This document shows positions 15,799-61,026 of a DNA stretch of 64,000 nucleotides, in pieces. The stretch's first letter is position 1. The number at the start of each line of letters is the position of its first letter. A program made the position numbers and the translations under genes. The notes under the pieces were generated by a model. It ran no database searches and was not told where the DNA came from. It worked only from the letters and a program-made list of their open reading frames with translations. The stretch lies in assembly GCA_973895155.1 (NCBI GenBank), contig OZ316894.1:18514805-18578804 (forward strand), given 5' to 3'. This DNA is from Marsupella aquatica (lineage: Eukaryota; Plantae; Marchantiophyta).

Positions 15799-15967
15799 AA
15801 GCGCTCCACATTTTTTTTCCTCCCGATCAATTCGTCAGCCAAAGGGACAGCGGACAACATTTTTCTCTCTGATCCATAATTCGGACGATCCACAATTCGG
15901 ACAATCGGAAGTAGCAATCCGACGAGGGAGAAACTGACAAAGAGGGACGACCAAGAGCGAAGTCCTT

Positions 15968-25531: not shown

Positions 25532-25667
25532 GAAAATTCAACTTAATCAATTAACCTCCCTGCTCCAGCCTAAGGCTAAACGACACCTCGTAGGAGTTAG
25601 ACGCTTTCTTGCAGGGAGCCCACCGAGGGCCCAACAGGTAAAAGCAACAGTGCCGCCTTAGGTGACC

Positions 25668-27474: not shown

Positions 27475-28435
27475 CGAGAGAAGCCATTGGAATTGTCACC
27501 AGAGGGTCAAAGCCCGAACCAGCTCTGGGCCGCAACAGCAGGCATGACTAAATAATTTTCCTTGACGCCATCAGGTTGATTCTCCTGGTTCTCCCCGGAG
27601 CGCACATCCTGTCCGGAATACCTATGTTTCAATTCTTGACGGGATGTATCGTGGGAGGTGGACGCATGAGAATCATGTGTCGGTGGTTCCGACCGAGCAA
27701 CAGGGTTAGCCTAGTATCTAGCTCCACCTTCGGCATCGCGCCGGGAGGTCTTTTCTCTCAAAAGAGCAGGTCCAACTCCACGACCATGATAGCCATAGTT
27801 GGGGCGGGTGTTCTCCATATGTTACCAAGTGTAGCCAGGTCTAGAGGATTCAACAGTATACACCAATCTCCCCGCCCACAGGTCCACCCTATGATGTTTG
27901 TTGATATAGACTTCCGTGCCGAGAATTCTTCTCCAGGGATAAAATAATCAGCTCACCAATCGACAGCAGGTGCTATCAACAGAGCGCAGCGAGTCCCCAA
28001 ATCTATAGCCAAGTTTAGCAGTTTCCCTATATCAGTCACTCTACATTGAGGTAGGATCACATCAAATCAGATTCTTCCACCACGCTCACATGCCTTATCG
28101 CGCAAACACTGCTTGGGCTCCCTTGATCAACTCCACCAACTACTTTAGGGTGGACAAAAACCGCGGCCGTGAACCTTGCACAGTGCCCTATTCATGTGAA
28201 AAAAACCTCCGGCTTCCAAAATCCCCCCAGATGGTTTGATTGATAGCAGAATCACCTCTGTCTAAGAGATAAGCAAGATTAGCACATGAAAAAACCATCC
28301 AGTCGATCAAAAACCCGAGAGAAACCCAAACCCTAGTGCACCTCAGCTCCGTCAGTTCTCTTCTTCAGCTCCGTCAGTCCGTCGGTGCCCCTTTAGGAGA
28401 CAAGTATTAATTTTTGTTTGTTTATGATTGAATAG

Positions 28436-30782: not shown

Positions 30783-31850
30783 CTAAACAAAGTGCTCCTT
30801 ACAATGTGTATTTGAGCACGTGCCCCTGTCTCCTTTACTATCTACCCTAGTGTCACGGTTGCAAGTCCCTTTATCTTCAGGGAGCTGAAACTTGGTGGTG
30901 TTGTTCCTAATGGCTATAATCTCCCGCAAAAAGTGTCTGGGATTTTCTCTATGCGGACCTGAATAGTCCCTTCCTACAAATGCTTTAGCAAGTGACGTGA
31001 CAAGTGCATCGTCAAGTTCTGCCTCAGGACGTAAACTACATATACGATGCTTCACGTTCCAAGGAATCTCATTGCTATTGAGGTCCAACACACTATGTGT
31101 AAACAGTGACTTCCAAATTTTTGTTGCACATCTCTTACTAAGTTGATCATAAGTAATTTCATTTTTTACCTTGTCTCTCTTTATGTGCAATAGAGACCAC
31201 AGTGGAGAGTTAAGAAGAAGATAACATCTAATGTCACTTGCATGGGATAGTTTCTCAAGACAAGGCCAAAGAATTGTTAGAAGAAAATTATCTCCACCAT
31301 TGGCATGCGTGTAGGGCACTGGAAATAGTCCGATCATGCTTGGGTTGGCAAATGCCTTAAGGGGGGAGTCATCCACAAGGAGGGTGTTGGTTTCATCATA
31401 TAGATTTCCAAATCCACTCCATACCACCCGAAAATCCTTCAGTAGCACATTTGCCTTTCCGTTTGTAATGTCATGCCTTTGAATGCCTGTGTCAAAGGCT
31501 TCCACTTGTGTGAATACAAACTTAAGTTTCAACCGCTCCTCAGCAGTGAACATCATGTTCAGCATTTTCACTGTTCAATGTACCCCAGCACATGTCCAAA
31601 TTGCAACGTCAAATCGGTCAAAAACCAACTTTAGAAACTCATGGAGCCCTGGCCTTTCTGTGTACATGCGACTAATTCCATTTTTTCTATCCCAATGCAC
31701 TCCACTTGGGATCACAACATTTCTGGATTTGCCCTTGCTTTGGAATTCAACTGAATCCCAAAGTATTTTGTTAAGATCCAAAATCAGCAATTTGCGCTTG
31801 ATGGAACAAGGTCTTGGTTCTGCAAGTGCAACAAATACCAATCTTAGAGA
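30783..31850 (-). pseudogene. FCP1/NIF-like HAD phosphatase-fold domain
   Basis: KLLILDLNKILWD...RPGLHEFL...FDVAIWT, in-frame TGA at 31575, ...LLKDF..VW...NTLLVDDSPLKAFANP. The DxD motif reads DLN. Confidence 0.75.
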
Positions 31851-32303: not shown

Positions 32304-34240
32304 TCATAATTGACATCGGAGGTACTCTCCTCTACCCAATAAGGTGCAGACCAAACCGGAGTTATCAATACTCCCATACTCAATGTGAATACTCAGAGTT
32401 TTTGAATGTCCTAATTTACGAAGAGCGCTTAGGACATTCAGTACAAGATAACCCGAATGGACAGTTATCATCACAACAATGGTAGGATTCCGTGGTAGCT
32501 CTACTATATATTGGAAGAGGACCAAAATCTCTACTTCAGTCCACTCTTTTTGCTGAAGTTGGTTGAAATCAACAATTGCAAGAGGGCATGTTGGAGATTG
32601 TTCTTCCAACGACTCCGGATCCACAGTCTTCATTAGGTTGTTACTAAAAAATGTGACCCACGGCTGGGTCCAAGAACTTGTCCCACCGCCAAACTTTTGA
32701 CAGTAAATATCATCTAGACGCATCACCAATGTCATTGGCAATATCTCACTCTCCTTTGTATGATTTGACTTCAACAAATTTGTCAACCATACATCGCCAG
32801 CTGCTCTTCGGCACCTGTTCAACTCCGAATCGGGACCCAATAATGGGAGGACTTCAATCACTTTAGCCCAATCAGTATCTGCTGGGAAGTGTTTTGGATC
32901 CTTCTTGAAGTAGTAATCTCCAATAAGAGACTTCAATTTGATCAATATCTTCACCTCCTTTGCAAACTCCTCCATCGCTGGAACATCTGACTTATTAGTC
33001 GGATCTTTCTTCAATAAAATCTGACCCGACTTCACCTTGTTCAAAATTCTGGTCAAATCTCTATTTGAGATTTCACCATCAAAACAACGAAACATGGCGA
33101 CGGTTATCGCCTTTTCGGACCTTTTGTTTCCCTGTGTACCAGCCCCATCAGGAAGTTTTCCATCAATCCACATCTGGCACACTAACTACCATAACTCGAA
33201 AAGATCATTCTCGGCAAAAAGTAACCAGTATACATTTTTCAAGTCTTTTCTCCCCATGGTCATCCTTGCCAATGCCAGATAATCCTACAGTCAAAAATTA
33301 GGGAGAATGTTGTAAGTTATCTACAATCAATGAGATTTGATAACACAATCGCTTGCTTGGACAGAGACCATCTCCGTCCAAGCCATAACCAAAAGTAGAA
33401 TGAAGTAAAATCTACAGAATGGAAGGTCTCACTCTTGGACAGAGACCATCTCCATCCAAGTCATAACCAAAAACATATTGAACTAAAATCAATGTAACGG
33501 ACGGTCACACTCTTGGACAGAGACCATCTCTGTCCAAACAAGAAAAATGTTTCTCACCTGAAATTTTTGACTCTCTTGGGCGTTTGATTTGTTGTCCCCG
33601 TGCTTTGGCTTTCTTGGTCTTCCAGTTTCAAGGAATTGTTTTCTTGCATGAACAATTGTATCTTTGAAGCACGATTGAAACACCATCGAAGAATTGATGG
33701 CATTTGATCGCATTGAGTGCTCAACCAGTATAGCCGATGGCGTAAGGTCTAACAATAATCTAGCCTTCCTATATTTTAACTTTTTTGCCAAAACTGTGAG
33801 CTTGGCATCAGTTTCGGCCCACTCAAGAACCCATTTGGCCGCCCTAGCAGAATGTTGCCCACTGACGGCAAGGAAAACAATCTCGCCTTTCTTCACTCCT
33901 GCAAGAAGGTCTTTGCGGTCGTTCTCCGTGCTGTCAAAATGAAGCAGCTTTCTAAGTTTTGGATTGTAAGGAAGAAGGTCCGCAACGTGAGGTTCATGTC
34001 TAGGGTTTTTCACCATGGATTCGACTATGTGCTTCACATGGGCACTGTTGAGCATCCTGTAACATAACCTTGCCGAAGCTGGATAAATTTTCTCCACTGG
34101 AATAGAAAATATTTCATTTATCCCAAAAGTATAGTACTGCTCTATTCTTTGGAGAACATCATTCCCTTCTAAGACCTTCTTCACCTCCGGGGCATCAAGT
34201 TTGTCTCCCTCATCCTCTGGGAGCATCTATACGTCCGTCG
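32304..34240 (-). pseudogene. ParB-like gene of element G, 3' exons (ParB domain + possible degenerate MTase region)
   Basis: YRMLNSAHVKHIVESMVKNP...FLAVSGQHSARAAK...HSMRSNAIN aligns by eye with E1 (HVENIKMLLMKNP...IGGNHGARAK). Downstream ILNKVKSGQI and PLAIVDF parallel E1 LLNRVIGKKI and LAIADIPY. Confidence 0.65.
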
Positions 34241-34243
34241 GAG

Positions 34244-34771
34244 TTGACCGCGCATGCTTGGGCTGAACAAGAAGTCTGGGAAGCAAAGGCACGGCTTGCT
34301 GATGTCCAATATGGACCTGTACTCAACAAAGGACAGAGCTCTAGAAGGCTGAAGAGTATGTTGGCTGAGGAGACGAAGCAACCAACCCCCATTCTGAAAG
34401 GGCTAAGCATGGTATTTGTGGAGGCGGGAATTGGAGAGGTTAAGTGCAAAGTGTACAAGTCCACGGTGCTTGACCTAGGTGGGACAGTGGAGGAGAATAT
34501 AACAGAGGACACCACTCATGTCATTACTAAGTCATATCCCAAAGCCTGCCGCAAGTTTGGGAAGGGAGACATTCGCTTTTATGTCATGTCCCATAATGTG
34601 TTTGTGGTTTCATATGCTTGGCTTGTGGAATCAGTAGCAGCTGGGAAGTGTCAAAACCCAATGGACTATGATCTTTTTGAGGCCTGGCCACGGAAGGGTC
34701 AGGATCCTTACAGAGAGGACTATGAGACAACAAGTGAGGAATGGGTCATTAGCGATTCTGAATCAGAGTGA
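34244..34771 (+). CDS. BRCT-domain ORF (5'-truncated), probable CACTA-B cargo
   Basis: ILKGLSMVF...LGGTVEENITEDTTHVIT...VVSYAWLVESVAAGK...DY matches the BRCT consensus. Confidence 0.75.
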   Translation: MTAHAWAEQEVWEAKARLADVQYGPVLNKGQSSRRLKSMLAEETKQPTPILKGLSMVFVEAGIGEVKCKVYKSTVLDLGGTVEENITEDTTHVITKSYPKACRKFGKGDIRFYVMSHNVFVVSYAWLVESVAAGKCQNPMDYDLFEAWPRKGQDPYREDYETTSEEWVISDSESE

Positions 34772-35303
34772 GGAGTAGTAGCATCAGTTTGGACACAAGT
34801 TTTTTTGTATAAATCAGATCATTGAAATAAATGTGATCTTTGAACTAATGTACCTTGTTATGGTTGGTGGCAGTTGGGCTTATTTTACTGTTGGCGGATT
34901 GTTGTTTCCTCCTGCCTGGGGGTGTCACTGTAAACGTACTGGGTGGGCTCAAATCTCGGCGGTGAGATATCTAATACCGCTCTCACACCTATGCCTATGA
35001 CTATACATGATTGGACTCTGATATGGTCATGGGTGTACATGCAGAGGCGGTACATTTGAGGACAGCTGTGGAGGTGGTGACACCCTCAAATATTGAGGAA
35101 TTTTGTGTCATTCACTTGACAATAGGTACACTACTCGCAAACCTGTTTTTTTCTTTTGGGGTGGTTTAGGGTTTGTGAGAATTTATTACACGTTATGTTA
35201 ACTCTTTTGGCACATACAGTCAGGGATATATGGAACACAAATACCACCATTAGGCATCCCTGTTCACTGCTGTCCATGACTGTAGAGCTTCCAGCCTGTT
35301 ACA

Positions 35304-38300
35304 ATGCACCCTGGTCACCACCCTCCCCAAACCCAGCCCAGGGCACAGGCACTGCCTTTGCATCATCCCACAAGGATATCACGCCATGATAATAAGCTTT
35401 GGCAGCGTGAAAGGTTACGAATCAGACTTTCAGGAGCCAGTAGGATGAGATGTCCTTGTGCAATCTGCCAAGGATCCCGTACCAGGGGTCTGAATGAGGT
35501 TTGGCGGCATATCGCGGTTCATGGAAGAGATCCACGACATCGAGTTTGGAATGATCCTGCAGAGGAAGATTCTTCCGACGAGGAGTGGAGGTTAGAATTT
35601 GATGCTGCCAATGCTGCAAGACGGGCAAGTGAGGTTCTGCCTGGTGCATTTGACAATGTTGTAACTGGTCTCTGTGGGTTGTCAGCTCTCCAACGGGATG
35701 GTGCTCAGGCAGCACCACGTGACGAAGGAATTCATGTGGAAGAGATGGTGAGAGACATCTTCCAAGACTTGGATGCATTTCACAATGGGCTGGACAACGA
35801 AGAGGATACGGCTGCAGATGCAAGTGTGCCCCCTGTCGAAGAGCCTCTTGATGAGTTTGAGATAGGGCAGGAAACCCCTGGGCATGATGAGATGTTTGGC
35901 TCTCCCCTACAAATACAGGAAGGCAGGAAGTCTTTGTACCCTGGTAGCAAATGTTCTAAACTGGGATTTGTCATCATGTTCCTGAACATTTGCGGCAACC
36001 ACAATGTCCCCAACGTTTTAGTTTCTGAGTTGTTGGCATTCTTGCGAACAACTGTGCTACCAGATGGTAATATTTTGCCCAAGAATATGTACGAGGCAAA
36101 AAGATGCATATCTAATCTTGGATTGAACTATGATTCCATCCATGCCTGTCCTGATGGGCATGTTCTTTTCAGAAAGGAGTATAAAGAATCGTTGACATGC
36201 CCTAAGTGTGGGAAGCACAGGTATCAGAACTCAGGAAAGTCTATGGTTCCCGCCAAGGTACTTCGTCATTTTCCACTCATTCCCAGACTTCAGCGGATGT
36301 TCAGAAGCCATGCCATCTCGGAGATGATGACTTGGGCAACTAACAAGAAAAGTGATGATGGGCTACAACGACATGCTGCAGATTCAAGGCAGTGGAAACT
36401 CATAGATGAGATGTATCCCGAATTTGTTGCTGAGCCGAGGAATGTCAGACTTGGGCTGTCATTGGATGGGGTAAACCCATTTGGAGACAAGAACAACAAA
36501 TTTTCGTGCTGGCCTGTAACTATTTTGAATTATAACCTTCCTCCTTGGATGACTACAAAGCGATTTTTTGTTCTGATGGTCCTACTGATACCAGGGCCAG
36601 ACAGTGCTGTATCTGCCAACATAGATGTGTTTCTGGCTCCCCTAGTGGAGGAATTGAGAAAGCTTTGGGAGGAAGGATTTCTCACATATGATGTCCTACA
36701 GAGGCTTGGGAGGTTAAACCCATTCATCCTTAGAGCCATCGTCATTCTGACTATAGCTGACTACCCAGCCCATGGGATGATATCAGGCCAAACAACAAAA
36801 GGATATTGTGCTTGTACTATCTGTGGGCGCAATGTCACCAGTGAGTACTCCAAAGCCCTGCAGAAAGTGATATACATGGGCCATCGTCGTTTTCTGAAGG
36901 CAGATCACCCTTACAGAGAAAGACAGGCACTGATTGCACACTTTGGCAATGACATTGAGCAACGTGGACCCCCGACACGAGTGACCAAAGAGGAGATCAG
37001 GCAGTGGGGAGCACTGAGGGATGACTATATCAAACGAGGGGGCAGGGAAGATAGAGTGAGTGATCCAATAAAGCGATATGGTGTAAAAAGACTGAGCATA
37101 TTGGACTTGGAGCTCAAGTATTGGAGGGTAAGCCTCTTGGAGTTGATGCTAATTGGGATACATGTTTTGGTTCAGAGCATGTGCATTCATTTCGAAGAGA
37201 GAGACTAAACTTGAGGCATTTGCTGACGCTTTTGCATTGCAACGGTGCAGGAGTTTGAGCCAAGCAAACATAACATTGATGTTATGCACATTGAAAAGAA
37301 TATTTGTGAGAGTCTACTCAGATTCTTGTGTGGAGAGAAAGACACTGGTTCAGTGAGATTGGATCTTGAACAGAGGGGAATGAAACCCCATCTTTGGTTG
37401 AGGCCACATGCCCACAGAGCTGATGTGCTCTTGAAGTACCAAGTGCCCTATGTTCTGACAGACACAGAGTGGGAACTATTTGTGCAGAGGTTGAGTTCTT
37501 TGAAGGTTCCTTCAAACTATGGCAGTGCTTTCAAGAAGCATATCATGACTAGAAAGCTTGGTAGTATGAAAAGCCATGACTACCATATGTTGATGCAATA
37601 GGTGTTGCCTTTATGCCTGAGGGGCCTGTTGCAGAAGCCTGTTCGTAATGTGATCATGCGACTCAGTGATGTGTTTCGTCGTATTTGTGTGAAGGTTTGG
37701 GATGAAACACACTTCCCACAACTGACAGAAGATGTCACTCAGGTGCTGTGTGACCTGGAGATTTATTTTCCTCCCGCATTTTTTGATGTCATGACCCACC
37801 TACTTGTCCATGTTGTGGAAGAGCTACACCAATTTGGGCCTGTGAGTGCTCGTTGGTTGTACCCTTTGGAACGGTACATGAAGGTACTCAAAGGTCACGT
37901 GAGAACATATTACAAACCTGAAGCAAGCATGGCTAAAGGTTACATCAAGGATGAGACTCTGGGATTTCTGACCGAATACATAGCACAATATGAGCATGTG
38001 AAGACCAGGGTGTGGAATTCTGATGAGGAGGAAGGGGTGATAGGTGAAGTACTGGAAGGGGCTGCAACCACAAAGAACCTGACCATATCTATGAGAGACT
38101 TGGCACATGACTTTGTATTACACAACACTGTGGTGATGGAACCCTGGATACAGTGAGTGCATACATGTGCTATAATTCAGTTCATGAGCTTAAATGTTGT
38201 GTGCGTGTGGTTTTCTCCTTCAGCCTGTTCATGTTTACCCAAGTTAATGCTGTGTGGTTGTTTGTTCAGGGAGTATGAGTCATTGAAGGCGGCCCATTCC

Positions 38301-39035
38301 ACTGCAGGAACAACTTTTCCAGGTTTCATGGAGTGGATCAGAGTGGCAATTAGAGAGCATCACGAGACCCACCCAGACATGGATGCAGACGTTTACCTAC
38401 TGTCTAATGCCCCTAGCCTGAAAGTGAAGACTTACAAACGGATGAGAGCATATGGGAATCACTTTCGAGTGAAGGATGGTGACAGTGCCTACAGGGTGAC
38501 GAATGACTGTGGGCTCATCACTGTATTTGAGCAACAGAGCCACAATCACGACAGGGCCTGGATGGAGATGGGATATGTGGGAGAATTAGTTGACATATGG
38601 GCTCTGGACTATGGGGCGGTGTCCAGTCCTGTGATTCTTATGAAAGGTTCATGGGTGCGGCAGGATTGGCTTGGTAACAGGGCTACCATGAAGAGAGACA
38701 ACGACGGTTTCTTGCTAGCCAATTTCAGAGGGAAATTGCCCGAATGGTCTGAGCCATTTGTGTTTCCCAGTCAGGTGGAGCAAGCTTTCTTCCTGGATGT
38801 GGAAGACTCCCCAGGTTGGCGTGTAGTGTGTCATAAACAGGCCAGGCAACGTCGGATGGAAGGATCAAACCTTGAGTTTCATTTACACTCTCATAGTGCC
38901 TTTGATCGTCGGCGTTCAGACCAAGTGCCTGTAGTTCATGATAGCGGGGACTTCATTCCTGTGACAAGGGTAGATGCATTTGCTGAAGGAGGCGAATTCA
39001 GAGATGCAGATGCCAACAGTGTGCCTGTGCCATGA
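35304..39035 (+). pseudogene. CACTA-B TnpD transposase
   Basis: CPCAIC..H, IHACPDGHVLF, RNVRLGLSLDGVNPF, ADYPA, DVMHIEKN, KSHDYH, FFDVMTHL, YPLERYM, EPFVFPSQ. Introns ~37128-37250 and ~38154-38269; in-frame TAG at 37599. Confidence 0.93.
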
Positions 39036-46977: not shown

Positions 46978-49900
46978 ATGACCGGAATATTTTTGAGAGG
47001 AGACAATGTGATATTGACAAATGATGGTTACGATGTTGCGAGTGGGACAGTTCAAAAAGTCAACCCGCAAGATAGTGTTCAAAAGATATTGTTGAGAGAG
47101 AATCGAATGGGAGTTCTCATTGAGAAAGTTTTTGACCGAACCACAAAACTACCATTTCCGATGCCTCGGGCAGAAAACCTTTTTGATGCCATTGATTCTT
47201 GCGTTATTTGGGATTTGTCTTGCGCATATCTATCAACAACAACAAATTCTCAAAAACGCATTAGTGTAGGTAGTTGTTCAAATAGACCCGAGAGTAATTT
47301 GGAGAAAAATCCAATTGTAGAGGAGGACTCATCGACCACTCCGAGGCAAGGGGATGAGGTTGAAATGTTCATCTTTGGGTGTTGTGTAGCCCTTGGAGTT
47401 GTTTTCAATACAAATCCAATGGAAAGATGTCACAACATTTTACTTGGTGAATCACAGATCAGTGTGAGGGTCACTGATGTCATTCATGGGAGTAGGGTTT
47501 TACCTTACAAACATAGTGGGGCTGAAACAATTGACCAGGCAAAAGACTCATGGGTTCTCTGGGACGTGGCAGATGTCCGAAGTAGAAAGAGTTTCTCAAA
47601 GAAGGATGCGGGTGATGATATCAACATAGAGCGGAGTTTTGTTGTGGAGTCTCCCTCAGCTGAAATTTCTAAAACTAATTGTGACTATTTCCAACGGTCA
47701 AATTGGATGTCAGAGTTGGTCGAACTATACATCGGTTCAGATCGAACCAATAGGGTTGCCACGGGGACCATCACTGTGCCTCAAGAAACGGCGGCGGTTG
47801 ACGATGAAATGCTTGGTGAGGACCATGTAGGGATTGCTGTGAAAGATGTGGTGGAATCACAATACTTTCCCAACTTCCATAGGGGAGTAATTACTTTGGT
47901 TCGGTGGAGAATTGATTCAACAAAACTACTTGCAAATGGGAAATTTTTGTCGGACATTTTGGTTGAAGGTTCAGAGAGGATGGAGTCGGTGGATAGGGAT
48001 GATCTCTATCCAAATGTAAATGATAGGGGAATGTTGCGCACAAGGCCATACAATTTCAACAAGAGGACTCATGTAGATCCGATTGAAAAGAAGAGAAGGC
48101 TATTGGAAACCAAGGCAGTTTCAAAAACAACGGAAGCTTCGATTGATGAAATTAAAAGAGAGAATTGTTGCAAGCAGAAATGTTGTCTGACTATGCCAAG
48201 AGAAGACATAGAAGATATTCGGATAGAATTTCACGGGATGTCTAGTGAGTCAAAAACATCACACATTTTCAACCTCTTCCACTACAGAGAAGATGATGTT
48301 CGTGATAAGGGGCACCATGTTCTCAAGGGTATGGTCGTATGTAGACATGCATTTGCAATCATCCATGGCTTTAGCCACACAAAATATTATGACTACAAAA
48401 GGAGATGTGGAGGGCTGCAAAATTGGGTTCCATGGAAACACGGGCTCCATGAAAACAAGGTCAAATACCTTGCATGCACGAGCTCTGTTGGAGGATTTTT
48501 TGACTCGAAATGCAGAGCCCATGCCTCATATACCTTATGCTGGGGCTCATTGGACAGACTCCACTGAATATCGTCTTCCAGCATGTTACAAGAAGCTGGA
48601 GATTTTGGAAGATGTGAGAACAAAGATGAAGGAAGAGGGGCTTCCTCCAATTACAAAGAATACTCTGTACAAGATTTGGAGCAAATCATTCGCAAACTTC
48701 AGTTTCCATAAAGATGTTGCATTTGCCAAGTGTACTCTTTGTTGTGAATACAAAGATAGTTTGATGCGAGAAAGAAGGAAAAAAGAACGTGCTGAAATTG
48801 AAGAAAAACGAGCGCAACATCTTTGTGAGAAAATGTCACGTAGATATGTTTACTATGCTCATCGAGTGATGGCTAAGCAACATCCAGGGGAATATCTTTG
48901 CATCATTCACGACAAGATGGATCAAGCAAAGACGTGGATTCCAAAAATGGTCAGTACTCCTAAATCGCTTTCGGGTCATGGGATGCCGCTACCTATTGCT
49001 CTCACAGGGATGTTGACCCACGGAAGGGATCCAGGAGTCTATGCACACTTTAGTGTCACTGGCCTTTGGCCAGGAGATGCCAATTTCACGGTGACATCCT
49101 TGGCTAAGTGTCTTCGAGACCTTGAAGAGTACAATGGAGACAAGACAGGTGACATGTTGGATGACCTTTATTTGGAACCTCATAGACCTTTCTTTCAAGC
49201 CCTTCTTGACTTTGATGCATTTTTTAAGGGATATTTGGAACCAAAGAGTATTCCAATGAATAGGTATATTGGTTCTGAAGATGCAACCGAGAGTCAGACG
49301 GAGACGGTCTTCACCCAACTTGGTGAGGATCAAGGAGGGGACATGCATGGGGAACAAGGCAGTCCATCTTTCAAGCCCTTGCCAAGGCACCTAACATTGC
49401 AAATGGATAACTCAGCAAAGGATAACAAAAACCAGGCTGTCATGGCATTTTGTAGTGAGCTTGTGAGTAGAGGAGTATTTGAAACTGTTCAAATGTCTTT
49501 TCTTATGGTTGGTCGTACGCACGAAGATGTTGATGCACTCTTTTCGAAGGTATCATATCAAGTTCAGCACAAGGAAGTTGCAACTCTCCTTGCTCTTATG
49601 GCAGAGATTTGGGAATGTGAGAGCATTCATCCAGTTCCCAGATTGATACAAGAAGTTGCATCTTACAAAGAATATCTTCAAACTTTCAACGTTAAAGATA
49701 TTCAAGGTCACTCAAAACCTGTATCATTTCTTTTCTCTATGAGAGATAATGTACCAATATTTCAGTATAAGTCCCATGTAAAGCAACCTTGGGCTCCAGT
49801 TGGTGGAAGGTGCATTTGGGCAACAGATCTGACAACAAATTCCCTTCTTTTACCTAGTGGAGAGCCCTTAGCTAAATCCATTGGAGAGATACACAAAAAA

Positions 49901-50719
49901 TCTGAAGAGATTATCCCATTTCTTACCAAGTACCTTGATTTTTTGAGAAGGAGTTGCACTGATGAGACATCTATAGCATATAAGGAAAGATTTCCTCTTG
50001 TGAAATATTGGGAGAGAATTGTGGAGTTGTTGACAAATGGGCTTGCACTAGAAGGGGAGGGAAGTACTCAATTTCCCTTGAAAAATGGATTTTGGCCTAA
50101 GACTAACCATGGCACTGGTTACAAGGTCAACCAACCGGATCAAAGTGGTCCTCCAAGTGAAGATGAGGAGAATGCGGAGATGACGGCTCTTCAAAATGAG
50201 GTCTTGGAAGAGATGGAAGATCAAGCACCACCATTTATTGGATCTCGAGCTGAGAGAGAACAAGGACGGTGGATTCCCCTACAGGATATTTGTCAAGGGA
50301 ACTTTGTATTTCTTCGACCCGAGGATGACTGGGAGAATAAAAATGGTGGAGGTCATTTCTGGTTGGTGAGAGCTTTGGGTTCGGTTGACCCTAAGCATGA
50401 AGTCCCAACTACATCTCCAACAAACCCTCCTCTGCCTCAACAATATGCTCCAATGTTTCCAGTCAAATGGTGGAGGCCTAAACACTCTAAACTTGATGTG
50501 ACTGAGAGTGCACGGTATCTAAACTGCTTCATGTCCACTAAGACATGGGAGCGAGATCCAGGGTTTGGTGAGAACGCTCAACATTGGCAGTATGCAAATT
50601 CTGCAATGTATGGTTTTAAATCTGGCATGAAAGAAGAAAACATGGCGGGTAGAGGTTTGAAGATTCCTCGAAATGTTCTACAAACTATCCAAAGTTATCT
50701 CCAAAGGATGGACAAGTAG
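46978..50719 (+). pseudogene. Sola-like (DUF7869-type) transposase of element G with three N-terminal Tnp1-like repeats; one frameshift ~48400
   Basis: CCKQKCC, VCRHAF, CTLCCE, IIHDKMDQAK, LQMDNSAKDNKN, VGRTHEDVDALFS, homologous by eye to 3542-7083. ORFs 46978-48567 and 48245-50719 overlap. Confidence 0.8.
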
Positions 50720-50964: not shown

Positions 50965-51290
50965 TTGGTACACTTTTTAGGCCAAATGTACACTTTGTTG
51001 CACTCAAAGCTACACTTTCTAGACCAAATGCACTTAAATGTACACTTTTTAAGCCAAATGTATGTTTTTTTCACTCAAATGTACACTTTCTAGGCCAAAT
51101 GTACTCAAATGTACACTTTTAAAGCCAAATGTACCTATTTTGATGTTCAAATATACACTTTTCATTGCCCAAATGTACACTCTTTAGGCCAATTGTACAC
51201 TTTTCTATCCCCAAATGTACACTTTTCATTGGCCAAATGTACACTTTTTCAAGCCCAAAAGTACACTTTTCATTGCCCAAATGTACATAA
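50965..51290 (+). repeat. Right subterminal repeat array (ccaaatgtacactttt) of element G
   Basis: About 14 copies, now separated from the right TIR by the P-like insertion. Confidence 0.85.
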
Positions 51291-51837
51291 ATCCTCGGGG
51301 GTCTCACTCCGCGAAAATCTCATATCACGTGCGACGAAGTATAGGGTCCGTTAATTGGGTTTCTCGGAAGACTTAAGAAGATTTGTGTAAGAACAATAGG
51401 GCCAACTTTATATGTTGGACAACTTGTAAGAATAATAGGGATATTAATATTTTTGACTTTGTAGATGGAAGGCATACAAAGAAGTTAGGGGGTCTTTGTG
51501 TCGGACTATGTAAAGTACACGTGTCACTATGTCATTGGTACACGTGGCACACATAACATTCTCAATATATTTTCCTAATTTTTCTAATATGTTAACATGG
51601 CAAGAATTTGAGAATGATCTGGTTTTATGGGGACTCACGTTTAGGGTTTGACCGGGATTAAGTTTGAAATTTTTCTGTTTAACGTGTCTCGTTTACCTCA
51701 ATTGGCCCTTGTCAGTCCCTCCCGTGTCGTTTCCCTCCACTATCCCTTTGGCCCCACCCGCTCTTTGCCTCAACAGAGTCTCTTTTGTTTGTACCTTGCA
51801 GCAAATGGCCTAAACGGGGTCTAAACCAGTTGTGCTC

Positions 51838-52660
51838 CTGCTTGGAGTGAAGGTCGGATCGAGCGAGAGTGTGCTCTCGACTGCACTTGGAGTGAAGGTC
51901 GGATCGAGCGAGAGTGTGCTCTCGACTACACTGTTGCTGGAGTGAAGGATCGACTCCTGTTGTGCTCTCGACTGCACTGCTGCTGCGGCTGGAGTGAAGG
52001 ATCGAGCTGCGTTGCTGCTGCGGCTGGAGTGAAGGATCGAGCTGCGGCTGGAGTGAAGGATCGAGCTGCGTTGCTGCTGCGGCTGGAGTGAAGGATCAAG
52101 CAAGATTTCTCGGAGAAGGATCGAGCTGCGTTGCTGCTGCGGCTGGAGTGAAAGATCAAGCAAGAGTTCTCGGCGAAGGATCGAGCGAAGGAGTGAAGGG
52201 GAGAGCGAGAGTGAAGGGGAGAGCGAGAGTTCTCGGCGAAGGATCGAGCGAAGGATCGAGTGAAGCGCTGCTACTTGGAGTGAAGGGGAGAGCGAGAGTG
52301 TTGCGCTCTCGGCTGTGCTGTTGCCGTTGCTGCTTGAAGTGAAGGATCGACCAAGAGTTCCTGGCTGCGCTGCTGTTTAGAGTGAAGGGGAGAGCGAGAC
52401 ATCTCAGCTGCGCTGCTGCTTAGAGTGAAGGGGAGAGCGAGACTTCTCAGTTGCGTGCGCTGATTAGAGTGAAGGAGAGAGCGAGACTTCTCAGTTGCGT
52501 GTGCTGATTAGAGTGAAGGGGAGAGCGACACTTTGCAGCTGCGCTGCTGCTTGAAGTGAACCCGGGAGTGAAGGGGAGAGCGAGACTTTGTAGCTGCGCT
52601 GCTGCTTGAAGTGAACCCGGGAGTGAAGGATCGAGCAAGAGTGTTGCGCTCCGGGAGGTG
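51838..52660 (+). repeat. GC-rich minisatellite built on gagtgaagg units
   Basis: More than 20 variants of ggagtgaaggatcgagctgcg... / agagtgaagggggagagcgaga. Confidence 0.85.
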
Positions 52661-54591
52661 GGTGTCGAGAGTGTTGCATTGCTGCTTTCTAAAACGGGAG
52701 CTGCTAGCTTGCTGAAACGGGAGGTGGCTACTGCAGGGAGTGTTGCGATATCTCAAACCGGAGTGCCAGGATTGGAGCTGCATTGCTGCGTTGCTCAATC
52801 GGGAGGTAGGCGCTGCCTACTTTGACGATCGTACTTGCTTGCTTGCTACTATTTGACGCCCAAATCTATCACGCATGGCACACCTAGAGTCGATCTGGTA
52901 GCGGTCATAGACGAGGAAGCACCTGATCTGCCCGTTTAGCTTTTCAACTATAAAATTCCTGTTCTGAGCTCCGTGAATGGCGATAAGCTCTTTGAGTATT
53001 TTGTCCTCCAGAGCTCGCCATGCCCTCGCAGATAAGGTTTGGAGCCACTGCTGAGATCCAGCTCCAACTTCCCAGCCGAATACTAGCTCAGTATTGTCGT
53101 CATTTGTCTCGACGTTGTCCATACTCATCTCTCCTTCTGTGTCCGCATCGACGACTTGACGCACATGTTTTTTGGATGCATCGTTAGAGTAACCGCGAGT
53201 ACAGGTCTCCAATGATTGCACTTGCCATGATTGACCACCTTACATGATCTCCATCCATGGGCTGGACCCCAGGAAAAAAATCATGTAACTTGACTTCTGT
53301 CGTCCCCCACACACCCGCACAAATCTGGTTCTCTATTACATGCCTTGGTGTCCCGTTGGCTGGTTCCTGCAATTTTCTTTAAGTCATCTAGAAGAGAAGA
53401 CTTCTTTAAGTGTTTACTCAGCCAGGGGGGACCACAGCCTCCAGCCATACTGGGTGGCGGGCCTGGTCAAGACGTGGATGACGCTCGTGCTTGATTTTAA
53501 ATTCTCTTTTGTTTCTCAAGCTTCTGGGCAAGGGCATTACCATTCTGGATTCTGAACTTGATCCTATTCAGGTTAGCTATTCAGGTCTGTTGAGCGATTG
53601 GGTTATTATTTTATTGCTGTAGTAACATGCATGGCCAATTGGTTGTCTTCATGTAATGGGAAGTTTTTGAAACTTAGAAATTGAATGGTGGTTTCAATTT
53701 TGTTCACAGGTTGCAAAAGGAATTGTAGAGGTTGTCATCAGCGCTTGCAGCAGTGAGCACCAACACTTGCGGTGAAGCAGTTTGCTAGAACACATAGTGT
53801 ACCTAGTGAATTGTAAGTTGCCTGTCATTGCACGTCTAATCGTCTGGCCATTCACCGAGTATAAAAAAATAGTGCCATGGCTATATTGGGCATTACATTA
53901 GAAGCGAATTATGAGAAGCTCCTTCTGCAGCATCCAGATGAATGTTGCTGGTGTGAACCTTGTGTCAAGTGCAGGGTTGGTGATGGGAATTTTGAATGGT
54001 TCCATTGCTTCTGCTTGAAAATGCGTGGAAGGCTTGTTACTAGGACATACATGGGAAAGCATGGCAAAGTTGTCACACGTCGTTGGAAGTGCTCTTGTAT
54101 AAGGCCAACCATTTGGCCTCAAAATGAGTGTCTTTTACGCAAGATTGTCATCCCGGACACGCTTGACATTGTAGTCCCTGATAGTATTCCACATTCAACT
54201 GAGCTTGATATTGTAGCCCCAGATAGTATATCAGATCAAGCTAAGGTTACAACCCATGGATGCTTGACATTGTAGTCCTTGATAGTACATGGATGCGTTG
54301 TTCATATATGACTAGGCCTTTGTTTGCAAGGCTGCAATTGTACCATCCATGATATATGAGAATATTTTTCATTCCCATTATGTGGCAAAGTTTTGCAAGC
54401 TGGCATTGTATTTATGTATGTCTTGGTTGGTGGGTGTTCAGGTTGCACTGTGTAGTTGACTTCATCTGGGAGGGAGGTTTGCAGATCATTGGAGCAGGTG
54501 CTATGATTAACCTTATCTTTGTCTATGGATTGCTCACTATCATCATGTCCCCCTCATATGTGATGTGCTTTGTGATGATTGCAGTTGAACC

Positions 54592-55266
54592 ATGCCGACA
54601 AGGACTTCAAACATAAAGAAAGCAACACAGTCCTCTGACAGAGGAGCCTCTTTGGAAGAGGTATTGCGTATTCCGTTGTTCTCTGAGCAAGAGATTCTAC
54701 AAACTAGCCCTCATGTTTGTGCAATTTGTGAGCATGGTGGGAAGTTGGTAATTTGTGATGGGCCATGTCACAGGCAATTTCATTATGTGGTTGGAGATGA
54801 AGCCCCTAATGACTCTTGCCCCTGTGTAGTCCTTCCCCTCCATCATGGAGGGAAGCCATGGTTTTGCCCAAATTGTAACCAGGACCAGGCCATGTGTTAT
54901 GGGTGCCGCACTGTGGGACCGTCACCTACAATTGTGCGAAAATGCTCTGATCGTTTTTGTGTACGATTTTATTGCTTTGGGTGTTTGGTAGCTGATGCAA
55001 AGTCCTGCCCACTGCATACATGTGTGACATGTTATCAGAGTCTTGAGGGTCAGATGGTCAAGAACATGGTACAATGTCTACGATGTCCAAATGCCTGGCA
55101 TACAGATTGTCTCCAGATGATCAAAAGCAAAGGGTTCGCTCATGATAGGGACATCTGGGACCATGAAGCACATGGACAACAGCGACAGATGTTTTATTGC
55201 CCCCGTCATCCTATTGATCCACACCTCAAGACTCCAATCAGGGACCACATTTCATGGCTCCAATGA
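54592..55266 (+). CDS. EDM2/NSD-like tandem PHD-finger protein (cargo)
   Basis: CAICEHGGKLVICDGPCHRQFH...CPNC...CYGC...C...C..FY...CPLHTCVTC...CLRCPNAWHTDC...FYCPRHPIDPHLKTPIRDHI. The last motif matches the EDM2-type HxIDxxLxTPxRDHI. Confidence 0.8.
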   Translation: MPTRTSNIKKATQSSDRGASLEEVLRIPLFSEQEILQTSPHVCAICEHGGKLVICDGPCHRQFHYVVGDEAPNDSCPCVVLPLHHGGKPWFCPNCNQDQAMCYGCRTVGPSPTIVRKCSDRFCVRFYCFGCLVADAKSCPLHTCVTCYQSLEGQMVKNMVQCLRCPNAWHTDCLQMIKSKGFAHDRDIWDHEAHGQQRQMFYCPRHPIDPHLKTPIRDHISWLQ

Positions 55267-55761
55267 TCTGAATAATGAACAAACCTATTACTTAGGTTTC
55301 AACGTCTTAGTGGGGTATGAGCAAGGCACATACTTAAGGTGCATCATGGGTGGTAGTACCCAATTTTATTAGTGTTGACATTTTGTCATAATTAAGGTCA
55401 CTAATAGTGCTGCATTTTGATGAGCAGAAGCACTAAACTTCGGGAATTGTTAGAAAAGCAGGCGAAAAGGATATTTTGTCCAAAGATATTTTATCCAACT
55501 TTAGCGGTATATCATGATTTTCACTGAATACATTTGCATGTATGATGGATTGCATTATAAAGTGTTTTGGCCTATTAGCACTTCTATTGTTAAATGTATG
55601 CTGACATTATGTACATTACATGAGAATGTGTATGTTGTCATTGCATCTCTTGAAGATCCTAATGTGTTTCCCTTGTGTGTATTTCAAATGTATTTGTGCA
55701 GGTCTTTCTGTTATCAACTCCAAAAGCAATGGTGCTATGCATGTTCTAGATTTGTATTGCA

Positions 55762-58700
55762 ATGGCAGCCCCTAAACCCAACTCTGTTAAATTAATACGC
55801 AAAGTTGGGGATGACAAGGCTGATTTACCAATTTGTGTTTTGTCATTCAAAGAAGGACACACCCTACATGATTTTAGGGCTCGTATTGCCTCTACTCTAG
55901 ACTTTGACTTTGATTTTTGGGATGAGAGACTTCCTGGTCGAGTGAAACTTGTACATGAGAAATTAATTGATCTGTCTGAGCTGGATGGAAGAGTTATTGT
56001 TGTACAACAAGAACTTGGAGATGGTGGGAGGATCCCACCAGTACCCTGTCATCCTTGCACTCCTGCATCATTGGGTCCAAATACTGGGACACCACAACTG
56101 GGGCCAACGGCACTAGCACCCTCCCCTGTAAGGGCTTCTTTTGAGTCACAATTGATGGGAGATGTCCCATCAAAGCTATGGAAAGATGAGTGGATGAGGT
56201 TAGAGAAATGGGTACATAAGAAGGGTTATGGTGATCACAATTGGAGAATTCGTACCTGGGATGAGGGGACAGATGTTCGAGGGCATCTGGAGTGTCTTGA
56301 ATGTAGGGAAACTTATGGCAATGCAGACAACTCTCAGAACCCTAAATCCATCTCCAATTGCTTTAGTAATTTTAAGACCAAACACTTGGTCTTCAATAAG
56401 CACAAGGATAACTATTGTCGGAGAAGGGGCATTCCTTCTACTTTGGTTCAGGTAGCAGACATCTCTGAGAAGCCAGAATATGATCATGCAGACGCCATCA
56501 AAGTAGGTGTTGAGATAGTTCAACGATTGAATGCTGAGCTTGGGGATGATGGCAAACTATTCTCTATTGTTCCTGATCCCAGTACTCCTGAGTATGTAAA
56601 CAGGTCTTTCCTGTTTAAGGTTCGATGTACTGTCTGTGGAATGCTTCACACTGACTTGTGCCCCAAGAAGCTTACCTTGGAGCCCAATTTGAGGACACAC
56701 TTAGTGAGTCGAGATCACTTGGATGCATTGGAGACTAGGCATGACACAAAAATGCTTGCCTTGAGGTCTGGGAAGAGGGGCAGGCCAAAGAGGACTGATT
56801 CTAGGGACCTACATCCTGGTCAGAGCGGGATTTTGAAGTTCTTTAAAGATGATGGGTCCCGGACAGGCAGCAGTTCAGGTTCAGGTTCAGGTGTGTGTGA
56901 ATCTGTTGATCTTGGTCTGAGTTTGCTTTGCTGGGGATTATGGGTAGAGAGAGGTGTGCCTCGACTGTTATGGAAGGGTATATCTTATGATATTTCTGGC
57001 ATTTTAGATGATCAGTCTGGGGGAATTACATGGCATTGTGAGCCAAGTTGTTGCTTGGATGTTTTCCATCCAAGTAGAGAGAGTGTTGTGAGTATAGCAG
57101 GCTGTTTTAGACACAAGGATTGCTTGAGGTTATCACAGAATGGAGGAGGATTTGAAAATCTAACTTGTAGTGAATGTGATTCTATAACACTAGAAGATGA
57201 TTTTCGTGGACGGGTGCACAGGGAAGCGGAAGCAGTAGTCCACAGAGGGAGCCGAACCACTGCTGGTGGTATACGTTTGGATTATTTGACCAACACAGAG
57301 TTAAGAGATCAAGTGCACAACCTGAACTCTGTGCGACGAAAAGAGCGTTGGTTGTTAGCTTTGCAGGCTCAGAAAGTATGTGCCTTGAGCACCAGGAAAC
57401 GAAAACTAGAGGAGTTGTTAGGAGTTGCAGCAGACAGGAAGGATTTGAGATTGTTTCTTAGGAGTATTTTGAATGGACACAGGAATGGTGCATTTGGTGG
57501 TAAGGAGGGTTTGTGGGATTTCTTGAAGGATGTAGCTCGCAATTTAGGCAGGAAGCCAAAAGGTAATCGTTACAGTAATAGGACTCGAGCTATTGCTCAG
57601 GCTATGTTCCAATTTGGGGGCCGTCAAGTTGCTCATTGTTTTGCACGAAACTTGACAGCCCCTAGCCTTGTGACCCTAAAACGTGATAGAGCAAAACTCA
57701 CACCTTTTCGAACCGGGTTACGGAAGGAAACCTTTCAGGAGATTGCTAGAGTGTTGTCTGCTGCAAAGCACTCATTGGGCATTGAGGGGGATGTGCCTGT
57801 TATCTTTGCTGAGGATGAAACAAGGATCAAAGAACGCCCTAGGTAATTGGAACTGGACATTTTTCCAATTGTTTTTTTAATGACTTTACAAGTAGCACTT
57901 GGCTGGAATTGCTGTGATATTGAAAAATTGCATGTCTGTGTTTCAGGTGGGAGGCAAAGTATGATACTCTCATTGGTTTCTGTGGACCTTCAGAGCAGCA
58001 TGTATGCTCCTATGGTTTGGAAATTCTAGTTGGTGAAGGTGATGAGGGGTATGATAAAATTGTAAGTACATTTGAACAATGCCCCAAGTGCATGTATGCC
58101 CGAGTTGTGATTGTGAATCCTCTGCATGAGTCCTTACCTAAATTGGCTGTGTGTGCACTTCCAACTTGTAATAAGTTCACAGCTTCTTGGGTACGAGAGC
58201 ATTGGGTCCAGTTAAAGGCTTTTTGGGATGAATATTGTAGAGCTATGGTAGGCCCTTTGCTTGGACATGCTAGTGATGGTGATGCACGTCGCCGAAAGCT
58301 GATGCTGGAAGATTACAGAGGGCAGAATGGATCATACCCAAGGTACGGAGTTGGGTGGGAAGGGTGGACATACTCTGTTTCAATTCTACCAAATGGAGAT
58401 TTGTATGGCTTTGGTGACCAAGACCAACCTCATAATGGGAAAAAGATGATAAACCCCTTAGACAGAGTGTCTTCTTTACTGGTGCTAGGAGATCAACATG
58501 CATCTTTATCTTATGTAGCTAATGTCTACAATCATTATCCAATTCATGAACATGGCATGGCTTGGGATGATGTGAATAGGACTGACCGGCAGAATTGGGC
58601 AGGTCCACAACGAATAGCAGCAAGAAGAGTGCAGCAATGTCTGAAAGATATGTATGAGAGGAGAGATGTACAACATGAACGAAGTTTAGGAACTCAGTTG

Positions 58701-60338
58701 TACTTGGAGATTTGTGCAGATTACTTAGATATTTTCTTTTCTCCAGTTCATGATTTGAGGTCCCGTATTGTGTTAGCATCCAAGGTTTCATTCTTTCTAC
58801 GTTTGTGGAGATTGTGGTTGAGGTTTGGTGACCATTCAGTGGGTGGGAACTTTGCAGCACACACTGAGAAAGACATGATGTCTATTCAGGCTTTTCATGA
58901 TGTTAACATGTCATGTCATTTCATTGTGCTGTTAATTTGTGCCTTTCGAGATAAGTTCCCACATCTAGGTGTTCCCTTCCACTTGCTAGGTTCAGATTGT
59001 TGTGAGATTTTCTTCAGCAAGGTAGGAGGCATGAGTGGCCATGAGCGGAATTATGATTTTGGCTCTCTATTGGATAGTGCTGTTGGACTGAACCGGCTTG
59101 CTGCCCTAGAATATGGACCAGAAGGCTTGAAGATAGGTCGTTCACATAAGAAACAAGATCATGTATGGGGGAAGATTCATCCTATAGGGGAAGGGGAGGA
59201 AGCACCAAATCTACTTGACTATTCTCTCATTGAGACTAATGAATTAGTGGTTGCAGCCCTTAAAGAAGGTTTTGTTGCTGCTAAGGATCTTATGCATCAA
59301 TTGCAGATGTCTCCACGAAGTTCCTTACCAGCAGCTAGAAAGAGATGGTGGACATGTCCTTGGGTTGTGGAAAGTGAGACCTGGCCACTAGAGGTGGTTC
59401 TGAAGGAAGCAATTGTTTGCAATGATTCTGAGGAGCAAGTAGAGCACCAACCACCAGACATAGGTCCTCGCCCAACTGGAGATTTTCATGAATTGGAAGA
59501 TCCTGAGGATGATCTGAATAGAATAGATGCATGGTTAACAGAACCAGATCCCATTGTTGTTCCTGAGATGCATTCAGATGATGTACACAGAGATGATATA
59601 CAGTTTGATGTAGACCCCTCAGATGAGCTTGAGACATTAGGTCATGAAGTTCGGCATGTGTTTGGATCAGTTGTCCATGCTGTAACTAATGTACAGAATC
59701 GTACCAAGGTAGTGCCTACTGTTACTTATGAAGGCAAGGTGATTTACAAATCCACTCTGGTAAGCCAGTTGGTAGGAAATCCGCATTTGTCAAAAGATAG
59801 GCTGACAAGGGTGAAACAAGTGCTATACTATAGTACTGGCAAGAGAAAAGTGCAAGAAGTCAATCCTAACTCATGTTTTGTTGATGTTGGCACTGATTGT
59901 GCAATTGCATTTGAGTCTGATGATAGTCCTGCTCCAAGTACTAGATCTGGAAAAAGAAAGGGAGGAAAGAATAAGGTTGTGGTGGAGGCAATCTCAGCAG
60001 GTAAGAAATATTTTTGGTTGGGTCGGATTGTCCAAATGAGACAGAAGTATGGCAGTAGGTGGGGCAATTGTCGGTCACCAATTGATTTGATGGATAGGCC
60101 AACTCCACTTGCAGGGCAATCAGGTAACATTTGTGAACTGTTGTTAAATTGGTATAGTCCTATTGGTAAGAGCAAAAGTGAATTCAGATATGATACCACT
60201 GATTTGAAATGGATGGATATTGAAATGGTCATTGCTAGTGTTAGTTTAACCATGAAAGAAGGGGTTATGGATCGTATCTATGTGTTGGATCCAATAGATA
60301 GACGTGCTTTGGATCAGTATCTTCAAACAATGGTATGA
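55762..60338 (+). CDS. P-element-like transposase, two exons (55762-57842, 57947-60338), ~1490 aa, apparently intact
   Basis: IFAEDETRIK (D), GHASDGDARRR (D), DQPHNGKKMIN (DxxH), GSDCCEIFFS (E); N-terminal C2H2-like fingers and AT-hook KRGRPK. Spliced frame has no stops. Confidence 0.78.
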
Positions 60339-60350
60339 ATATCATGTTAC

Positions 60351-60430
60351 TGTTTAGTTTTTGAGAGTCTGTATATATGTTTTATTTTGTTGTTTAGTTT
60401 TTGAGAGTCTGTATATATGTTTTATTTTGT
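60351..60430 (+). repeat. Perfect 40-bp tandem duplication in the transposase 3' UTR
   Basis: tgtttagtttttgagagtctgtatatatgttttattttgt x2. Confidence 0.9.
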
Positions 60431-61026
60431 TAATATTAGTGGGTGTAGTGGGATAGGATAGGGGGTGACGGATTGGCAACTTGAGATCCTTTCTCAATTA
60501 GGGGTTCAATTCCCCTCCGTCACATGTTACATCTCTCAACATAAGTTTTAAATGGAGTATGGATGGAGCATGGGATTGGTGATCAATGGGTGGAATGGAT
60601 TATTTATGTTGTGACCTTAAAGGCCATCCCACTTATGCACGTAAGGTTTATATTGGGATGACCTTTTAGGTACACAATATAAATGATGCATTGAAATGAT
60701 CAAAGTTTAAGGTCGACAAAGGTGCAAGAACTGTTGCAGGGCGTGCCATGTCTGACATACGACTTCACAAGGTACTGACATAGACTTATCTTTTCTTTCT
60801 AGGCATTTTATATTGATATGTGACACTTTACTTCACAAATTATAGGGGCAATACAATTTGGATTTTAGACTCTTAGAAGAAAGAAAGAGGGAGGAAAAAA
60901 AATTTTCAACTTAATAAGTATGGGGGTCTAGGCATGAAAACGTCGCAGGTGATGGGGGGGTCCTCCATATAGTGAGACCCCCGAGCATAAATCAAATAAT
61001 AATACACTTTTAATGAATAGGCTGAT

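Follow-up and report, generated by a model that had tools for sequence, protein, structure and literature searches.

We analysed a stretch of 64,000 nucleotides from the liverwort Marsupella aquatica (contig OZ316894.1 of assembly GCA_973895155.1, positions 18,514,805 to 18,578,804 of the forward strand). We refer to this whole stretch as the window and count all positions from its first letter. It contains a DNA transposon of 9692 bp with a two-exon transposase gene, which an earlier note on the same DNA had described as an apparently intact P-like element. The features of the element are listed below (TIR stands for terminal inverted repeat, TSD for target-site duplication, ORF for open reading frame and HTH for helix-turn-helix).

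51294-60985: P-type element, 9692 bp, with perfect 15-bp TIRs and an exact flanking 8-bp TSD
51286-51293: left 8-bp TSD, CATAAATC, with an exact copy at the right flank
60986-60993: right 8-bp TSD, CATAAATC, exact copy of the left one
51294-51308, plus strand: left 15-bp TIR, CTCGGGGGTCTCACT, perfect pair with the right end
60971-60985, minus strand: right 15-bp TIR, perfect pair with the left end
51323-51336, plus strand: subterminal ATCACG-type motif, ~30-43 bp from the end (ends aligned by eye)
51841-52723, plus strand: GC-rich internal tandem-repeat region, units of 12-60 bp (repeat and CpG analysis)
53877-54275, plus strand: Cys-rich ORF, 132 aa, no Pfam match; YNG1 match non-significant (E 8.2)
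54592-55266, plus strand: accessory gene; product a stand-alone protein of 224 aa with tandem PHD fingers of the NSD type (Pfam PF23004, E 5.8e-8, above cut-off)
55762-57842, plus strand: transposase exon 1, with ubiquitin-like domain, fingers, RGRP motif, four-Cys domain, coiled coil, P-type HTH and D685
57843-57946, plus strand: intron, 104 nt, GT..AG, directly 3' of the first catalytic Asp
57947-60338, plus strand: transposase exon 2, with the remaining RNase H fold, P-type helical insertion domain, acidic linker and BAH-like C-terminus

Ends and genes of the element

The pair of ends at 51294-60985 is the sole perfect inverted pair of at least 10 bp in the window that is flanked by an 8-bp duplication. 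A shuffle control at the looser 10-bp setting gave one comparable pair in 1 of 30 local shuffles, and by arithmetic a 15-bp pair is about 1000-fold rarer than a 10-bp pair. The perfect repeats and the exact duplication reported in the earlier note were found again in this way. Its remark that the termini are not of the CA type also held: the ends read C[CT]CGGGG in the element, in a miniature inverted-repeat transposable element (MITE) of the window and in 5 of 44 related loci. The ATCACG-type motif was seen by eye at a comparable position at both ends of the element, in the 307-bp MITE and in the related loci L001 and L002, and is a candidate transposase-binding site. The ratio of observed to expected CpG was 0.78 in the 5' region of the element compared to 0.28 in the transposase gene, and the GC-rich repeats at 51841-52723 form a putative promoter or 5' region.

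Joining the two exons yields 1490 aa without an internal stop, which agrees with the uninterrupted two-exon ORF proposed before. The predicted junction 57842/57947 is based on two observations: spliced in this way, the protein becomes colinear with that of intronless relatives, and in locus L004 an intron lies at the same place and in the same phase. From the sequence, retention of the intron would bring a stop codon immediately afterwards. The catalytic residues are D685 (57814), D804 (58275), D853-x-x-H856 (58422-58433) and E1047 (59004), the D..D..DxxH..E arrangement noted earlier. D685 was retained in 127, D804 in 124, H856 in 122 and E1047 in 128 of 131 homologous cores. Overall, this RNase H-type DDE triad with its D(2)H motif is conserved in 120-128 of the 131.

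Upstream of the core we found two C2H2-like fingers (C178/C181/H208/H214 and C289/C292/H313/H319), an AT-hook-like RGRP motif at residues 339-342 and a four-Cys domain (C390/C454/C469/C472), whose cysteines were invariant in all nine aligned sequences. The N-terminal 498 residues of the element's own transposase were modelled with a predicted local distance difference test score (pLDDT) of 78. In this model residues ~5-86 resemble ubiquitin (Z up to 7.7, root mean square deviation (rmsd) 2.7, 77 aligned residues; Foldseek E >0.01). The C-terminal domain (~59900-60335) resembles BAH or chromo-barrel domains with Z scores of 5.5-7.0 (DIM2, MTA1, DNMT1 BAH1, EBS, ORC1b), and such a tail is present in both plant and animal family members. 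These middling scores suggest a fold rather than a function.

The 224-aa protein matched the NSD2 PHD cassette with E 6e-6. The tandem PHD arrangement is alike in the two, whereas the protein of the element stands alone. Its first match in the ESM Atlas (0.93) was a Streptophyta PHD_NSD cluster, and we take its PHD fingers to resemble those of plant EDM2. Seven of its eight matches were also stand-alone proteins of 213-239 aa, 43-82% identical and mostly with the same start and end. As its relatives are of the same size and this similar, the ORF is a conserved small gene and not debris. A search of proteins of 390-2000 aa returned no long parent protein, which is weak evidence. In sequencing run X1 the read depth of the PHD gene was like that of the remaining element, on which ground we rejected a one-off nested insertion. 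The protein would read histone marks, judging by its fold family. The 132-aa Cys-rich ORF upstream, whose status is uncertain, is possibly a degenerate PHD-like finger; 5 of its 7 listed variants were synonymous. At position 54587, just 5' of the PHD start codon, runs X2, X3 and X6 showed a one-base insertion. As this insertion alters the in-frame stop upstream of the PHD ORF, it is conceivable that in some copies an exon further upstream is joined to this ORF by splicing. The PHD gene, the 132-aa ORF and the 30.6-kb TIR element that hosts the transposon had not been noticed in the earlier note.

The catalytic core and its relation to P transposases

As the first catalytic Asp sits in exon 1, we folded the relative P0006 (41% identity to exon 2) with the family alignment. 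For the resulting model (pLDDT 83, predicted template-modelling score 0.77) the top Foldseek match was 6p5a, the strand-transfer complex of the Drosophila P element, with E 7e-11 and a target-normalised template-modelling score of 0.72. RAG1 (8e-4), Transib (2e-3) and Hermes (2.5e-2) ranked lower. A comparison against 48161 chains with VIA-align gave 6p5a a Z score of 21.7 at an rmsd of 4.0 A over 408 of 442 residues, compared to 8.2 for the runner-up and 7.5 for Hermes. The whole unit of HTH, RNase H and helical insertion domain superposed on P.

These scores separate the element from hAT, the superfamily to which plant transposons with an 8-bp TSD usually belong. The 8-bp TSD, the short TIRs and the DxxH motif would all suit a hAT member, and the C2H2-like fingers are reminiscent of BED fingers. 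However, the Hermes scores fall far behind those of P, and no hAT Pfam domain was detected in the window exons or in 39 relatives. We rejected hAT membership on these grounds and consider it extremely improbable; the P-type assignment of the earlier note was upheld, with the fold grouping with P far above Hermes, Transib and RAG. The TSDs are 8 bp long and variable, unlike the TTAA of Kolobok that is given in the available text of PMC13565253; the comparison with Kolobok covered the TSD.

At the sequence level the link is fainter. A profile of 50 sequences matched 6p5a over the HTH and the first Asp, aligning D685 with D230 of P, and a second weak stretch lay in the insertion domain; two acidic low-complexity matches ranked level with or above 6p5a in the same search of the Protein Data Bank (PDB). 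Searches of the PDB with a single sequence or with the A1 profile yielded no meaningful match. The P-element HTH model PF12017 matched 3 of the 39 relatives, one of them above the cut-off, and no P catalytic Pfam model matched any of the 39. The ESM Atlas neighbours of the Riccia relative P0003 were TNP-like/THAP9 clusters (first match 0.93).

The resemblance to the Drosophila melanogaster P transposase (PDB 6P5A/6PE2), THAP9, Galileo and 1360 extends to the order of coiled coil, HTH and split RNase H with helical insertion, to the DDE and DxxH residues, the 8-bp TSD, the short TIRs and a candidate internal binding site, and to the occurrence of deleted derivatives and MITEs. Domain order, guanosine triphosphate (GTP) contacts and TSD lengths of P were taken from the accessible parts of PMC7776569 and PMC3698922; members of the superfamily are expected to have a TSD of 7-8 bp, and the element, the MITE and the related locus L003 each have one of 8 bp. 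In contrast to Drosophila P, the transposase of the element has, in place of the N-terminal THAP domain usual in insect and vertebrate members, a ubiquitin-like domain along with two C2H2-like fingers and a four-Cys domain; it ends in a BAH-like domain and is about twice as long. The element also has C[CT]CGGGG ends, TIRs of 15 bp compared to 31 bp, a separate PHD gene, a land-plant host and only some of the GTP contacts. The earlier statement that fingers and an AT-hook replace THAP was therefore incomplete: fingers and RGRP motif are present and THAP is unmatched, but the ubiquitin-like, four-Cys and BAH-like domains have to be added.

Several observations weigh against a P-type element. The fold of the core was modelled for the relative P0006, as a stand-in for the element's own. 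The structural match to P has 14% identity, the sequence link is weak (profile E 0.012), and exons 1 and 2 had no Pfam or NCBIfam match. THAP (PF05485) matched neither exon 1 (E up to 1) nor the 39 relatives. There was also no THAP structure among the matches listed for the N-terminal model, although this is a weak test as the ubiquitin-like domain filled the rows. The PHD profile matched none of the 44 related loci, and the gene is thus not a family-wide part. P termini are usually of the type CA..TG; those of the element are not.

The GTP contacts appear to differ in part as well. P itself transposes in a GTP-dependent manner and cleaves the donor with a 17-nt stagger. The available text of PMC7776569 names D528, K385, K400, V401, S409, F443, D444 and N447 for P. 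In a weakly aligned stretch K400, V401, S409, F443 and N447 correspond to N910, W911, A919, L954 and F958 of the element. In the same weak alignment D444 corresponds to D955, and D528 probably to D1044 by its spacing to the last Glu; the remaining contacts differ. The counterpart of D444 was kept in just 29 of 131 cores. Since only some of the contacts of P are retained, the use of GTP by the element is doubtful.

The same differences would suit a separate superfamily, sister to P, which would share the catalytic fold with P but have ends and modules for DNA binding of its own and possibly do without GTP as a cofactor. Plant and coral-like loci have the C[CT]CGGGG ends in common, THAP is missing, the BAH-like tail occurs in plant and animal members, the GTP contacts are partly lost and the P catalytic models match none of the relatives. 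Nevertheless, the superposition of the three-domain unit on P, the 8-bp TSD, the DxxH motif and the HTH matches in three relatives speak against such a separation, and we regard it as unlikely. We place the element on the margin of the P superfamily and not inside the P/THAP9 family, because catalytic residues, fold and TSD conform to P and the THAP and terminus conventions do not. With considerable confidence, the structural model predicts that it works like a P element.

Mobility, copies and relatives

The ends recur elsewhere. The window holds 4 left and 8 right end-motif sites, and a matching TSD was found only for the main element and for the following pair.

10734-11040: MITE, 307 bp, AT-rich, ends CTCGGGGG / CCCGGGG, exact 8-bp TSD at 10726-10733 and 11041-11048

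The transposase family of the element likely mobilised this MITE. All 44 related loci were scanned for the end motif and the 23 longer ones were searched for inverted repeats. The five loci with C[CT]CGGGG ends range from plant to coral-like, L022 and L025 being animal-like by similarity. In L003 the TIR is 26 bp long and starts with CTCGGGGG, the 8-bp TSD is exact and the ORF of ~1490 aa contains no intron. The combination of TIR and 8-bp TSD, whose recurrence the earlier note had proposed as a check, was thus seen again in the MITE and in L003. In L022 an 8-bp duplication is accompanied by two additional C at the left end, and L001 showed no TSD. An exact TSD in only one of the three relatives with both ends (L003) counts against our interpretation. 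L001 also contains a different extra ORF of 174 aa between transposase and right end (7003-7524 of that locus); as it carries another extra ORF, the cargo varies within the family.

At least half of the sequence words were present in each of five sequencing runs from three studies, on which ground we rejected an assembly artefact. In four runs that were compared with the region we found an empty site, in which a run contig shows the 8-mer CATAAATC once and then the right flank, and an internally deleted form joining 51550 to 60750. In X1, interior contigs of 0.4-1.1 kb had 0-2 differences at a depth of ~450-530, compared to ~9-30 for the terminal contigs listed; depth does not equal copy number here and X1 is possibly the sample of the window itself, which again weakens the case. 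The right end led into dissimilar flanks (agreement 0.53-0.65) in at least 6 contigs of X1 and at least 8 of X3, as seen in 12 of 61 loose-end rows and 16 of 255 pieces; some of these contigs are possibly MITEs and not full copies, another point on the negative side. We infer tens of near-identical copies. Variants were found at 693 sites in all; among the 40 listed, a small and selected sample, 15 fell into the three ORFs and 11 of these 15 were synonymous.

The copies could also have multiplied passively along with the host TIR element, the P-type element itself being no longer mobile. This would fit the observation that the flanks themselves are high-depth repeats. However, host copies without the insertion exist, a terminal contig of depth 446 in X1 ends at 60969, and contigs exit into dissimilar flanks. 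We judge passive multiplication to be improbable. Empty site, several flanks, deleted copy and near-identical high-depth interiors point to recent amplification, and the element, an intact cut-and-paste transposon, is likely autonomous and amplified recently. It is also the youngest layer of a nest in which the host TIR element interrupts a CACTA transposase gene and the P-type element lies in the host. For present-day activity we see about even odds; the suggestion of the earlier note that the element may be active is backed by its recent amplification, and not by expression or a new jump.

With exon 2 we found 104 relatives at E <=1e-3. Those with names were 27 from Riccia, 1 from Adiantum and 1 from the coral Desmophyllum; no seed-plant name occurred among the 104 matches (7998 candidates scored), by which absence is not proven. 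A 75-sequence profile reached 6473 clusters at 50% identity (E up to 1e-3). Pattern searches gave 49 matches in viral contigs and 62 in prokaryote genomes, with no confirmed relative in either. For the tree we used FastTree with midpoint rooting on 131 cores and 463 columns, taken from 247 proteins because these 131 span the core; it contains family members only and no outgroup. The two closest proteins, P0001 and P0002, lack exon 1 and were omitted, as were rows L020, L021 and L006 from alignment A3. The element fell into one clade (support 1.0) with each of the 16 Riccia and both of the Adiantum rows, and its sister group there comprised 15 Riccia and 2 further rows (support 0.998). Outside this clade lay the row with Desmophyllum proteins in its cluster. 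Direction and timing of descent cannot be read from a midpoint-rooted tree of this kind, but the grouping fits a long residence in seed-free land plants and a liverwort-like host. The element is likely a member of a deep P-superfamily branch of liverworts and ferns that lacks THAP. The distant relatives P0086, P0091, P0117, P0122 and P0243 carry extra Tudor, SAP, C1 or Ulp1-protease domains, which suggests that chromatin or SUMO modules were acquired repeatedly.

The remaining features of the window are the host TIR element with its ORFs and a methyltransferase gene:

30378-61026: host TIR element, 30.6 kb, perfect 26-bp TIR, 4-bp TSD CTAG
30783-31574: NIF-phosphatase-like ORF in the host element
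34106-34771: BRCT ORF in the host element
35286-39035: CACTA gene set in the host element
48227-50719: DUF7869 ORF in the host element
1760-3376: N6/N4 DNA methyltransferase ORF (Pfam PF01555, E 3.5e-7, above cut-off)

The host element is possibly Sola-like, and the P-type element lies ~33 bp inside its right end, adjoining a 22-bp repeat array. The methyltransferase ORF is flanked by an ORF at 947-1759 and, in convergent orientation, by a transposase-like ORF with DUF7869 at 3542-5233, and 947-5233 may be a transposon with a bacterial-type DNA methylase. N4-methylcytosine enzymes are known from liverworts. Two ORFs on the minus strand of the host element (32304-34226) resemble by eye those of 947-3376 and are possibly a diverged copy of that module. 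The stretches 15938-19457 and 22146-27495 contain a Copia-type retrotransposon (gag and RVT_2 matches) and, by eye, decayed LINE-like ORFs.

Place among land-plant transposons and significance

Taking the evidence together, we consider it very probable that the element is a cut-and-paste transposon with a P-type fold, likely autonomous and recently amplified, and likely from a deep THAP-less P branch in liverworts and ferns. By analogy with P, the spliced 1490-aa protein would bind the ends at the ATCACG-type motif, for which its zinc fingers, four-Cys domain and HTH are the likely means. It would then pair the two ends and use the D685/D804/E1047 site to cut them, and insertion with an 8-bp stagger, once filled in, would leave the TSD. 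MITEs and deleted copies would be moved in trans. More speculatively, the BAH-like tail and the PHD protein may read histone marks and steer insertion or blunt silencing, and intron retention may yield a truncated end-binding repressor. The VANDAL elements (MULE), which carry accessory anti-silencing proteins according to the available text of PMC12973397, resemble the element as TIR transposons whose additional gene possibly acts on chromatin, although superfamily and protein differ.

The earlier note had stated that P elements are not recognised in land plants. The available portions of the surveys agree: the table in PMC9033089 has six TIR superfamilies and P is not among them, and PMC6839031, which describes GingerRoot, counts seven. 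GingerRoot shares the host pattern of seed-free plants and aquatic animals (Selaginella, bryophytes, corals, fish) and has termini shared among these hosts, but according to the same excerpt it has an integrase-related transposase and a 6-bp TSD and belongs to an unrelated superfamily. For 1007 plant genomes screened with Pfam-based profiles of 17 superfamilies including P, the accessible part of PMC12973397 gives active clusters for seven, not for P; as it has no Pfam match, the protein of the element would escape such a screen. P is, however, already known from the green lineage: P-2_cRei moves in mutation-accumulation lines of Chlamydomonas (PMC9977147, available text). Its host is an alga and not a land plant, and the comparison with it is at the level of the superfamily. 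What is new is consequently confined to the occurrence in land plants and to the present lineage.

The lineage itself may also be an ordinary P-superfamily family that has already been catalogued (e.g. in Repbase, from corals, algae or bryophytes) and is merely invisible to Pfam. This is quite possible, even if we lean against it. Besides Chlamydomonas, P elements are known from some fungi, where they are rare (PMC5751038, in the text available). With its 6473 clusters the family is large enough for curators to have met members, and one Riccia member is named 'Transposase' in UniRef. On the other hand, P is missing from the land-plant lists and from the active clusters cited above, and full-text literature searches, which did not cover Repbase or Dfam, returned no description of the lineage. 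The accessible parts of PMC4455052, PMC13565253 and bioRxiv 2021.09.26.461848 hold no land-plant P record; the preprint's supplementary trees and the tables of Huang et al. may bear on this point.

Tentatively, one can go further. The element may represent an undescribed deep P-type branch of land plants that predates the split of liverworts and ferns and is still jumping. THAP would have been swapped for a toolkit of ubiquitin-like, zinc-finger and BAH domains, the enzyme may work without GTP, and the element's own PHD histone-reader gene would serve target choice or escape from silencing. If this is true, it would provide a native transposon tool for seed-free plants and an extra land-plant TIR superfamily.

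If the P-type reading of the element is true, the land-plant list gains one more cut-and-paste superfamily, and a P-type lineage, whose protein matches no P catalytic profile, has been missed by Pfam-based surveys. MITEs with an 8-bp TSD and C[CT]CGGGG ends gain a likely parent other than hAT. Two questions become testable. One is whether the whole fold family requires the GTP cofactor, which among transposases has been reported for P alone; the other is whether a PHD reader carried by a transposon has a part in targeting or in anti-silencing. For seed-free plants, the intact and recently amplified copy could serve as a tagging tool.

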